From a phage: 14,939 nucleotides of DNA. The stretch is from sequence record PX306536.1. The stretch is one strand, 5' to 3'. Position 1 is the first letter of the stretch, and every line of letters begins with the position of its first letter. Under the pieces are notes generated by a model that did no database searches, was not told the DNA's origin, and worked only from the letters and a program-made list of their open reading frames with translations. Below are positions 2,679 through 14,939 of the stretch, one piece after another. Position numbers and translations under genes: made by a program.

Positions 2679-3128
2679 ATGCAATATACACTTTGGGATA
2701 TTATCAGCCGCGTGGAAAGCAACGGGAATTTAAAAGCGTTGCGGTTTGAACCGGAATACTATCAGCGGCGCATGGCGCGGGGCGATTGGAATAATTCGAT
2801 TATTCAAAATATCCGCGCCGCCAATAAATGCAGCTTAGGCACTGCCCGCATGATTTATTGCAGTTCATGGGGCGCGGTTCAAATCATGGGATTTAATCTT
2901 TATTTGGACGGCGCATTTAATTTGAGCGTTGCGCATTTCATGGAAAATGAAGCGTATCAAGTAAATGAATTTCGGCGCTTCCTTTTGAAAAATGGATTAA
3001 CTGAATATACGCCTGAAAGGCTGGCGAGTGATAAAGCGGCCCGCGTTAAATTCGCCAAGGTTTATAACGGCGCTGAAAGTTACGCGGATTTAATTTTGCA
3101 AGCCTGCCAATTTTACGGGGTGAAATAA
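2679..3128 (+). CDS. XV: Soluble lytic enzyme P15 (muramidase-type endolysin), 149 aa
   Basis: ATG at 2679 preceded by RBS AAAGGA (2666-2671), immediately after the polymerase stop. The ORF track's upstream extension to 2634 overlaps the polymerase and lacks an RBS. Size matches PRD1 P15. Confidence 0.8.
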
Positions 3129-4903
3129 TGGCTAATTTCAACGTGCCTAAATTGGGCGTTTTTCCGGTTGCTGCCGTTTTCGATATTGACAACGTGCCGG
3201 AAGATTCCAGCGCAACGGGTAGCCGCTGGCTACCTTCAATTTATCAGGGCGGTAATTATTGGGGCGGTGGCCCGCAAGCGTTGCGCGTTCAGGTAAGCAA
3301 TTTTGATGCTACTAACCGCCTGCCCTATAACCCGCGCACTGAAAATAACCCGGCTGGAAATTGCGCTTTTGCGTTTAATCCTTTCGGTCAATATATTTCT
3401 AATATCAGTAGTGCGCAAAGTGTGCATAGGCGCATTTACGGAATCGACCTAAATGATGAACCGCTTTTCACGCCTAACGCTGCAAGCATTACAAACGGCG
3501 GCAATCCTACAATGTCGCAAGATTATGCTTATCACAATATCGGCCCGATTAATTCCGCGTATAAGGCCGAAATTTTCCGGCCTGTAAATCCGTTGCCAAT
3601 GAGTGATACAGCGCCTGACCCTGAAACATTGGAACCGGGGCAAACGGAACCGCTTATTAAATCCGATGGTATTTATTCAAATAGCGGTATTGCGTCATTT
3701 ATTTTTGATAGGCCCGTAACGGAACCTAACCCAAATTGGCCCCCGCTGCCCCCGCCTGTAATTCCAATTATTTACCCTACCCCCGCGCTAGGCATTGGCG
3801 CGGCGGCGGCGTATGGCTTTGGCTATCAAGTGACGGTTTATAGATGGGAAGAAATACCCGTTGAATTTATCGCTGACCCTGAAACCTGCCCCGCGCAACC
3901 GACAACGGATAAGGTAATAATCAGGACAACCGATTTAAACCCGGAAGGTTCGCCGTGCGCTTATGAAGCCGGAATTATTTTAGTTCGCCAAACGTCTAAC
4001 CCAATGAATGCGGTAGCGGGGCGGCTGGTTCCTTATGTTGAAGATATAGCGGTTGATATTTTCCTGACAGGGAAATTTTTCACGCTTAACCCGCCTTTGC
4101 GAATTACCAATAATTATTTTGCGGATGATGAAGTAAAAGAAAACACTGTCACCATAGGCAATTACACTACCACGCTTTCAAGCGCCTATTATGCAATGTT
4201 TAAAACTGACGGCTACGGCGGGGCCACTTGCTTTATAGCGTCTGGTGGTGCTGGTATTTCCGCGCTTGTTCAATTGCAAGATAATAGCGTTTTGGACGTG
4301 CTTTATTATTCGCTGCCGCTTTCATTGGGTGGAAGCAAAGCGGCAATTGATGAATGGGTGGCGAATAATTGCGGGCTTTTTCCTATGTCCGGTGGGCTGG
4401 ATAAAACCACGCTGCTAGAAATTCCGCGCCGTCAATTGGAAGCTATAACCCCGCAAGATGGGCCGGGGCAGGATGATTTATTTATTCTGGATGATTCCGG
4501 CGCGTATGCTAGTTTTTCATCCTTTATCGGTTTTCCTGAATCCGCCTATTATGTTGCAGGCGCTGCCACTTTTATGGACGTTGAAAACCCGGATGAAATT
4601 ATTTTTATCTTGCGAAATGGCGCGGGCTGGTATGCTTGCGAAATTGGCGATGCGTTAAAAATTGCGGATGATGAATTTGATTCCGTGGATTATTTCGCGT
4701 ATCGCGGGGGCGTTATGTTTATTGGTTCGGCGCGTTATACCGAAGGGGGCGACCCGCTACCCATTAAATATAGGGCGATTATTCCAGCGTTGCCGCGTGG
4801 GCGTTTGCCGCGTGTAGTGTTAGAATATCAAGCGGTGGGAATGTCGTTTATTCCTTGTCAAACGCATTGCCTTGGCAAAGGCGGAATTATTTCAAAGGTG
4901 TAA
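3128..4903 (+). CDS. II: Receptor-binding (adsorption) protein P2, 591 aa
   Basis: 591-aa ORF, start overlaps the XV stop (TAATG); position and size match PRD1 P2. Confidence 0.85.
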
Positions 4904-4906
4904 ATT

Positions 4907-5287
4907 ATGAATGTGAATAATCCCAATCAAATGACGGTAACGCCTGTTTATAACGGTTGCGATTCCGGCGAAGGCCCGCAAAGTGTGCGCGGTTACTTTG
5001 ACGCGGTAGCGGGCGAGAATATCAAGTTTGATATGACTTATCTTGCCGATACGCAAGGCTTTACCGGCGTTCAATGTATCTATATTGATAACGCGGAAAA
5101 TGACGGCGCGTTTGAAATTGACGTTGAAGAAACGGGCCAGCGGATTAAATGCCCTGCCGGTAAGCAAGGCTATTTTCCTTTGCTGGTTCCGGGCCGTGCT
5201 AAATTTGTGGCGCGTCATTTGGGCAGCGGCAAAAAATCGGTGCCTTTGTTTTTCCTTAACTTCACTATTGCGCAAGGGGTTTGGTAA
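4907..5287 (+). CDS. XXXI: Penton (vertex base) protein P31, 126 aa
   Basis: 126 aa, RBS AAAGGTG upstream; paralogous to the N-terminal domain of the next ORF (TGQRIxxxAGxQGYxP...F[LI]NFxIAxGVW). Confidence 0.85.
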   Translation: MNVNNPNQMTVTPVYNGCDSGEGPQSVRGYFDAVAGENIKFDMTYLADTQGFTGVQCIYIDNAENDGAFEIDVEETGQRIKCPAGKQGYFPLLVPGRAKFVARHLGSGKKSVPLFFLNFTIAQGVW

Positions 5288-6309
5288 TGGCTAATCAACA
5301 AATTGGCGGTAGCACGGTAACTTATAACGGCGCTATCCCTATGGGTGGCCCGGTGGCAATTAATACCGTTATTGAAATTGCAGGCACGGAAGTTTTAGTT
5401 GATTTAAAACTTGACTATGCAACCGGCAAAATTTCGGGCGTTCAAACTCTTTATATCGACTTGCGCGATTTTTTGGGTGACGTAACCGTGACCATGCCGG
5501 ACACCGGGCAGCGCATTACGGCGCGGGCAGGTACGCAAGGTTATTACCCGGTGCTATCCACTAACCTTATGAAATTCATTGTATCCGCCACTATTGACGG
5601 AAAATTCCCAATGAATTTTATTAACTTCCCTATTGCGCTTGGCGTATGGCCTAGCGGAATTAAAGGCGATAAAGGCGACCCCGGCGCACCCGGCCCCGCT
5701 GGTGGTACGGTTGTTGTTGAAGATTCCGGCGCGTCATCTGGTGAAAGCCTGCTAGACACTACCAGCGAACCGGGCAAAATTCTGGTTAAACGAATTTCGG
5801 CGGGCAGCGGAATTACCGTTACTGATTATGGCGATGAAGTGGAAATTGAAGCCAGCGGCGGCGGTGGTGGCGGTGGCGGTGTAACTGATGCGCTTTCATT
5901 AATGTATTCGACCAGTACGGGCGGGCCTGCAAGTATTGCGGCCAATGCGCTTACTGATTTTGATTTGTCCGGGGCGCTGACTGTAAATAGCGTGGGAACT
6001 GGTTTGACAAAATCAGCCGCTGGCATTCAATTAGCGGCGGGTAAATCCGGGCTTTATCAAATTACCATGACGGTAAAAAATAATACCGTGACAGCGGGAA
6101 ATTATTTATTGCGCGTTAAATACGGTAGTAGTGAATTTGTAGCGGCCTGCCCCGCCAGTAGCCTGACCGCTGGCGGTACAATTTCACTACTGATTTATTG
6201 CAACGTGTTAGGCGTTCCAAGCCTTGACGTGCTAAAATTCAGTTTGTGTAATAGCGGGGCGGCGCTTAGTAATTACATTATTAATATCACTGCCGCGAAA
6301 ATTAATTAA
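5287..6309 (+). CDS. V: Vertex spike protein P5, 340 aa, with P31-like N-domain, collagen-like Gly-X-Y stretch and Gly8 hinge
   Basis: ATG at 5287 overlaps the XXXI stop (TAATG); the track's 5281 start is a TTG. N-domain similar to P31; GIKGDKGDPGAPGPAGG at 5656-5706; Gly8 at 5857-5880. Confidence 0.88.
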   Translation: MANQQIGGSTVTYNGAIPMGGPVAINTVIEIAGTEVLVDLKLDYATGKISGVQTLYIDLRDFLGDVTVTMPDTGQRITARAGTQGYYPVLSTNLMKFIVSATIDGKFPMNFINFPIALGVWPSGIKGDKGDPGAPGPAGGTVVVEDSGASSGESLLDTTSEPGKILVKRISAGSGITVTDYGDEVEIEASGGGGGGGGVTDALSLMYSTSTGGPASIAANALTDFDLSGALTVNSVGTGLTKSAAGIQLAAGKSGLYQITMTVKNNTVTAGNYLLRVKYGSSEFVAACPASSLTAGGTISLLIYCNVLGVPSLDVLKFSLCNSGAALSNYIINITAAKIN

Positions 6310-6327: not shown

Positions 6328-6588
6328 ATGATGGGAAAAGGTTTTGAAATGATGGTTGCCAGCGCAATCCGTGCCGCTGGTATTAATCCTGATGAATTGA
6401 TGGAAAAGGCTAATACCCTTGTCCATAATTTGAATTACCAGCTTGACCGATTCGGCCAGCGGCTGGATTCCATTGATTCGCGCCTTTCGGTAATTGAAAA
6501 GGCGCTTGATATTTCCCCGGCAGAAAAGCCGGACAATCAGCCCGAATTAACGGGTATTACTTTTGAAGGTGACGCCAATGACCAATGA
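6328..6588 (+). CDS. XVII: Assembly protein P17, 86 aa
   Basis: 86-aa ORF with RBS GAAAGGTGA upstream; size and position match PRD1 P17. Confidence 0.75.
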   Translation: MMGKGFEMMVASAIRAAGINPDELMEKANTLVHNLNYQLDRFGQRLDSIDSRLSVIEKALDISPAEKPDNQPELTGITFEGDANDQ

Positions 6589-14829: not shown

Positions 14830-14939
14830 CTATCGCTTTTCCGTTTGTGATAGTTCGGGCCTATCGGATGCAGGGGGTATTGACAGACGGAAATAAAAAT
14901 GTTAGGGGCGCGGGTAGGTGGGGAGGGGCACGTATCCCC
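14830..14939. repeat. Right inverted terminal repeat (110 bp), genome terminus ending CCCC
   Basis: Exact reverse complement of positions 1-110. Confidence 0.95.

Follow-up and report, generated by a model that had tools for sequence, protein, structure and literature searches.

Tandem genes of a PRD1-like phage encode paralogous penton (P31) and spike (P5) proteins

In phage PR772, the penton base has been visualized by localized asymmetric cryo-EM reconstruction (PDB 6Q5U) and is an asymmetric heteropentamer made up of three N-terminal domains of the spike protein P5 and two copies of the penton protein P31 (PMC6750898). In sequence, the N-terminal domain of P5 is highly similar to P31, and the two models superpose (PMC6750898). 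P31 ends near the five-fold axis and residues 121-124 of P5 carry on upward, from where residues 124-140 of three P5 chains make up a predicted collagen-like triple helix, followed by a trimeric knob (PMC6750898). P5 is in turn bound by P2, and the arrangement as a whole was described as a 'domain swapping' that solves the mismatch between three-fold and five-fold symmetry (PMC6750898). As cited in that article, the similarity between P31 and P5 and the collagen-like motif are credited to Bamford & Bamford 2000, Caldentey et al. 2000 and Huiskonen et al. 2007, so that the similarity has been referred to since 2000-2007. Earlier work on PRD1, as summarised in PMC6750898, had modelled P31 as a homopentamer.

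The same article provides a structural comparison with adenovirus, which also carries a trimeric receptor-binding fibre on the five-fold vertex of a double-jelly-roll capsid. In adenovirus, however, the penton base is a homopentamer with five grooves, three of which bind the fibre tails, whereas in the PRD1 group three of the penton positions belong to the spike polypeptide itself and a paralog fills the remaining two (PMC6750898).

The relationship between P31 and P5 is already known, down to atomic models, and a prediction made from the letters of the present DNA, that the two genes encode back-to-back paralogs, has turned out to be essentially right in its interpretation. What our analysis adds is only mildly new and concerns the breadth and the architectural variability of the family PF08948 in metagenomic tectivirus-like genomes, which we regard as a lead and not as a result.

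The P31-P5 locus in an alphatectivirus genome

The stretch of DNA analysed here, referred to as the window (14,939 bp), is the complete linear genome of a PRD1-like phage of the genus Alphatectivirus. We found the properties expected of this genus, namely a linear genome of ~15 kb, terminal inverted repeats, the gene order of PRD1 and nucleotide identity of at least 95%. When whole genomes were aligned end to end, identity was 97.9% to Burkholderia phage CSP1, 97.5% to PRD1 (across 100% of the PRD1 length) and 97.2% to PR772, with dozens of further relatives. The window differs from every record in the phage collection, 97.9% being the highest whole-genome identity. The region encoding P31 and P5 found matches in 75 phage records of this collection, tectiviruses without exception, and the features underlying these matches, where named, were receptor-binding protein, penton, spike and assembly protein.

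In the PRD1 record AY848689, gene II (P2) is located at 3128-4903, XXXI (P31, penton) at 4907-5287, V (P5, spike) at 5287-6309 and XVII at 6328-6588. The open reading frames (ORFs) of the window are situated at these same coordinates, and the order II-XXXI-V-XVII is that of PRD1. The features of the locus are collected in Table 1. For P5, a mechanical list of ORFs gives a TTG start at 5281; we have used the ATG annotated in AY848689. Genes XXXI and V are arranged head to tail on the same strand, and the description of the two as back to back is literally true because the stop codon of the former and the start codon of the latter overlap in the sequence TAATG. This overlap may help to couple the translation, and thereby the expression, of P31 and P5.

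Table 1. Features of the P31-P5 locus and the termini of the window.
Feature	Coordinates	Strand	Evidence
Gene XXXI, penton protein P31, 126 aa	4907..5287	+	ORF; AY848689 'XXXI penton P31' at same coordinates
Gene V, spike protein P5, 340 aa	5287..6309	+	ORF; AY848689 annotation; PF08948 and PF08949
TAATG junction, P31 stop TAA (5285-5287) and P5 start ATG (5287-5289), 1-nt overlap	5285..5289	+	Sequence; same overlap in AY848689
P5 N-terminal penton-base domain, residues 1-121, P31 paralog	5287..5649	+	BLASTP; PF08948; AlphaFold model
Collagen-like linker, six Gly-X-Y triplets (GIKGDKGDPGAPGPAGGT), P5 residues 124-141	5656..5709	+	Regular expression on translation
Run of 8 Gly (poly-glycine), P5 residues 191-198, separating shaft from distal knob	5857..5880	+	Sequence; translation
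P5 C-terminal knob, residues 197-340, crystallised part, inside PF08949 match	5875..6306	+	phmmer to 1yq5_A, E = 1.7e-80
Inverted terminal repeats, 110 nt, perfect	1-110 and 14830-14939		

P31 consists of a single PF08948 jelly-roll domain throughout, ending in IAQGVW. P5 comprises, in this order, a PF08948 domain, a Gly-X-Y linker, a shaft, a poly-Gly run and a C-terminal knob (PF08949). As had been predicted, P5 runs on from its N-terminal domain into a collagen-like stretch, with Pro-Ser preceding the six triplets, although the run extends to position 5709, 9 nt past the end coordinate (5700) given in the original prediction. The poly-Gly run is missing from the crystallised construct 1yq8 when the latter is aligned to P5 with phmmer. 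It appears as a length-variable hinge, with 8 Gly in the window and 9 both in a PR4-like contig (L004) and in the protein representative P0002.

The locus resembles those of PRD1 and PR772 in its genes, its domain order, its collagen-like motif and its poly-Gly hinge, with the coordinates of PRD1, and differs from them in only a few substitutions; as far as can be judged from the sequence, function would be the same.

An antisense ORF of 127 aa with a TTG start (4892-5275, minus strand) spans nearly all of the P31 gene and is probably a mechanical ORF. In the PR772 record AY441783, a feature named 'ORFd' is listed under the P31 match. GenBank records disagree on the name of gene XXXI, which encodes the penton protein: the Salmonella PKJ phages have it as 'tailspike protein', NC_001421.2 as 'major spike protein' and BCE1 as 'hypothetical protein'.

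P31 is homologous to the N-terminal domain of P5

The original prediction was based on two short motifs, and we located both of them in both proteins and in the same order. TGQRI-x3-AG-xQGY-xP is present as TGQRIKCPAGKQGYFP at residues 76-91 of P31 and as TGQRITARAGTQGYYP at residues 73-88 of P5. F-[LI]-NF-x-IA-xGVW corresponds to FLNFTIAQGVW at residues 116-126 of P31, its C-terminus, and to FINFPIALGVW at residues 111-121 of P5. As nothing beyond these two motifs had been cited, a resemblance brought about by chance or convergence in two unrelated small beta-rich proteins had to be considered. Pairwise alignment of P31 with P5, which had been proposed as a check for P5 residues 1-120, revealed a similarity spanning 115 residues and thus reaching beyond the motifs. 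In BLASTP, residues 12-126 of P31 aligned with residues 10-121 of P5 with 42 identities in 115 positions (37%) and 3 gap positions (E = 4e-20). The Smith-Waterman score of the two proteins was 172, against 27.2±4.7 (maximum 50) for 2000 shuffles (z = 31). Along with the match of both proteins to one Pfam model from end to end and a structural similarity corresponding to a TM score of 0.80, both described below, these values leave chance or convergence with a practically negligible probability.

With respect to domain families, PF08948 (PRD1_P5_spike_N, cut-off 25 bits) recognized P31 with 243.1 bits over model positions 1-126, and also recognized residues 1-121 of P5 with 215.9 bits over the same model positions. 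Residues 122-340 of P5 matched PF08949 with 464 bits. In PHROGs, P31 and P5 fall into two families, with cross-matches of about 1e-15 to 1e-17. Weak Pfam matches to Chitin_bind_4 and DUF5606 (E about 0.1-0.3) were far under the cut-offs and were dismissed as noise.

We then compared the proteins with those of known structure. At 3 of its 126 residues, P31 departs from the solved sequences of the PRD1 virion crystal structure (1W8X, chain N) and of P31 in 6Q5U (E = 3.5e-85). P5 is nearly identical to 6q5u_O, the full-length P5 of PR772 (E = 9.5e-211), and its distal part matches 1YQ5, 1YQ6 and 1YQ8. In phmmer searches against PDB sequences, P31 and P5 each matched their own solved paralog with E about 1e-14. 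An AlphaFold model of residues 1-125 of P5 from the window (pLDDT 86.8) displayed an all-beta sandwich with nine strands, and this model was compared to the PDB with Foldseek. The significant matches were two chains of 6Q5U, P5 and P31. Superposition on the solved P31 chain (6q5u_R) gave a TM score of 0.80 and an rmsd of 1.8 Å over 112 columns with 38% identity, and the TM score towards the solved P5 chain of PR772 (6q5u_O) was 0.84. AraC, ToxT and cupins were also returned at TM scores of about 0.4 or lower, and were set aside as a generic beta-sandwich resemblance. The claim that the spike base kept the penton fold is thus borne out by the superposition; moreover, the N-terminal domain of PR772 P5 itself fills penton positions (PMC6750898).

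These results clearly indicate that one single-jelly-roll penton domain is present in two homologous copies, as P31 and as the first ~121 residues of P5. Each defining feature that we tested at the level of sequence or fold was found, and the two proteins are true members of the P31/P5 family rather than look-alikes.

Both proteins are nearly identical to their counterparts in PR772, the genome of which is 97% identical, and by this analogy the heteropentamer and the trimerisation of P5 would be expected to apply to the phage of the window. The vertex pentamer would receive the N-terminal domains of three P5 chains at three of its five positions and two P31 chains at the others, so that the trimeric spike would be anchored as part of the five-fold vertex. 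The paralogy of P31 and P5 would in this way resolve the mismatch between three-fold and five-fold symmetry. Past its N-terminal domain, P5 would continue through a short (Gly-X-Y)6 triple-helix linker, a shaft and a poly-Gly hinge to a trimeric knob, and would hold the receptor-binding protein P2. We consider it very probable that the following explanation holds jointly, namely tandem genes for homologous penton domains, a vertex with three P5 and two P31 as in PR772, and an old tandem duplication. For the window itself the finding matters little because a published and structurally solved relationship has been re-identified. The general principle it represents is that, by means of a pair of paralogs, a spike that is a trimer can be built into a vertex that is a pentamer.

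History of the probable duplication

Over the aligned codons, the nucleotide sequences of P31 and P5 are 48.5% identical, third positions are 37% identical, which is near random, and the longest exact run shared by the two is 9 nt. The event is therefore ancient, and on account of the short run and the third positions we rejected the idea that one copy had recently been converted by the other. Exactly two tblastn matches to P31 were found in each of the 75 alphatectivirus records of the phage collection. Beyond these, the metagenomic Logan contigs L015 and L016 retain the order P2-P31-P5, and comparison with the window gave identities of 46% between short proteins, 67% between long proteins and 29-35% across the two types. 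As identity within each type is higher than that across types, the duplication predates the split from the lineage of L015 and L016.

An intragenomic duplication, as suggested in the original prediction, is favoured by the tandem position of the genes and by their distribution in relatives. The genes are adjacent and on the same strand, homology covers the whole unit, and relatives harbour two orthologous lineages; the event itself we infer. The PRD1 lineage would thus owe the pair to an old tandem duplication, and the two copies have since diverged to ~37% (34-38%) identity.

The P31 copy has changed much faster than the N-terminal domain of P5, which evolves more slowly in the comparisons with the PR4-like contig (L004/L007) and L015. 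Identity of the PR4-like contig to the window is 85% for P31 and 98% for the adjacent P5 N-terminal domain. The fast divergence of P31 could reflect a different constraint on a 'filler' subunit, or a mosaic recombination in the P2-P31 region.

Recombination might also account for the pair itself, if a diverged tectivirus had been the source of one copy, which was then placed beside its homolog. The structural-gene region of tectiviruses does appear mosaic, as seen in the unequal identities of the PR4-like contig, and the distance between P31 and P5 of the window (34-38% identity) is matched by the distance of either one to many metagenomic homologs. On the other hand, the head-to-tail order with overlapping stop and start codons is kept in all genomes of the PRD1-like clade that we examined (the 75 records, L015/L016 and L026), and among the relatives sampled, no foreign single-copy lineage was found in which the P31 or the P5 type is nested. 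We therefore regard acquisition by recombination as improbable and proceed with a tandem duplication.

PF08948 proteins in uncultured tectivirus-like viruses

A profile constructed from P31 and the P5 N-terminal domain was searched against 1.84 billion cluster representatives (clusters at 50% identity). As a result, 1,354 clusters of the PF08948 type were obtained at E <= 1e-3, 311 of them at E <= 1e-10. PF08948 is thus far bigger than cultured phages suggest, and many of its members are found on contigs of 13-19 kb (Logan, JGI, ENA). The best 150 of the 1,354 representatives were classified into 61 short and 89 long forms. The domain ends 0-6 residues from the C-terminus in 59 of these 61 short forms, and the long forms are proteins of 151-554 aa in which the domain begins no more than about 30 residues from the N-terminus. 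When the 150 representatives were arranged in a neighbour-joining tree, a block of 14 short proteins including P31 adjoined a block of 19 long proteins including a P5-like representative, and short and long forms interleaved further out.

The genetic contexts of these proteins were seen from the short-protein side, since a search for homologous proteins with an alignment of 35 sequences returned short forms only. A locus search with an alignment of the P5 clade returned only 4 distant viral contigs, and one metagenome scan gave only 3 loci, of which two were fragments. Lists of Pfam families among neighbouring genes cover L015-L017 and L019-L026; L018 is a fragment sharing the genes of L017, and L008-L011 are IMG/VR viral contigs of 7.9-15.9 kb. 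Almost all of the contigs L015-L017 and L019-L026 encode a PRD1-type capsid protein (PF09018), a family B DNA polymerase of the protein-primed type (PF03175), or both. The tectivirus-like contigs (about 13-19 kb) resemble PRD1 in that the PF08948 gene is located upstream of the capsid gene, but differ from it in the copy number and architecture of PF08948, which include single short, single long, short-short and long-short arrangements.

A short gene followed by a long gene in tandem was found in L015/L016, L019, L020 and L026. Only a single short copy was present in the stretch examined of six contigs (L008, L021, L022, L023, L024 and L025) and in L009, whose copy is close to the end of the retrieved sequence, so that another one upstream could have been missed. 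The count of genomes with a single copy is biased because context look-ups began from short proteins, and the sample is small. L010 harbours a single long copy.

Two short PF08948 genes in tandem were observed in L017 (4813-5567; also in L018, 1289-2043), encoding proteins of 127 and 124 aa that are 48% identical, with no fused spike. This pair may represent a mixed penton to which no fibre is covalently joined. The order is reversed with respect to PRD1 in L011 (3537-6033), where a long ORF of 657 aa precedes a short ORF of 157 aa. Between them, the PF08948 domains of these two L011 ORFs share 52% identity, compared to no more than 36% with any other domain sampled, which appears to point to a separate duplication or conversion.

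The long forms raised the possibility that the duplication proceeded in the opposite direction, with a fused, P5-like protein as the ancestor and P31 arising from a duplication of its 5' part, or from duplication and truncation, as a 'filler' that lets a trimer sit in a pentamer. Most of the best 150 representatives are long forms that carry the domain at their extreme N-terminus, and one tectivirus-like contig, L010, has the long form only. In addition, a short copy can arise beside a long one, as the two copies in L011 are closest to each other. By contrast, a single short copy beside unrelated downstream genes was the commonest state among the distant contigs in our short-biased sample, and this is consistent with descent from a stand-alone penton protein. 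Weighing these observations, we consider a P5-like ancestor less likely than not.

A tandem duplication of the penton domain may have occurred more than once. The 1,354 clusters, the short-long pairs of differing depth, the short-short pair of L017/L018 and the long-short pair of L011 lead us to propose, tentatively and at somewhat less than an even chance, that duplication of the penton jelly roll has been recurrent and partly independent across uncultured tectivirus-like viruses, and that heteromeric pentons are a general and repeatedly evolved solution rather than a peculiarity of PRD1 and PR772. If so, mixed pentons would be a general way to mount spikes without five-fold symmetry on five-fold vertices. 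Many uncultured phages that contain a membrane may make use of the principle and have perhaps arrived at it anew, which, if true, would bear on the evolution of double-jelly-roll capsids.

Finally, we examined how the collagen-like linker is distributed. Of the 18 proteins in the long clade near PRD1, 15 have three or more consecutive Gly-X-Y triplets immediately after GVW, whereas at least four triplets were found in only 13 of the 89 long forms among the best 150 of 1,354. Among PF08948 relatives, the linker is thus mostly confined to the clade near PRD1, and distant long forms fuse other modules directly to the penton domain. The scarcity of triplets among the long forms and the other modules fused in distant ones indicate that the penton domain behaves as an N-terminal anchor that is itself conserved while the distal modules are exchangeable. 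Very long runs of Gly-X-Y after GVW were also observed in P5-like proteins, namely those of L026 (3376-3993), P0019 (at least 20 triplets) and P0075, compared to six triplets in the window.
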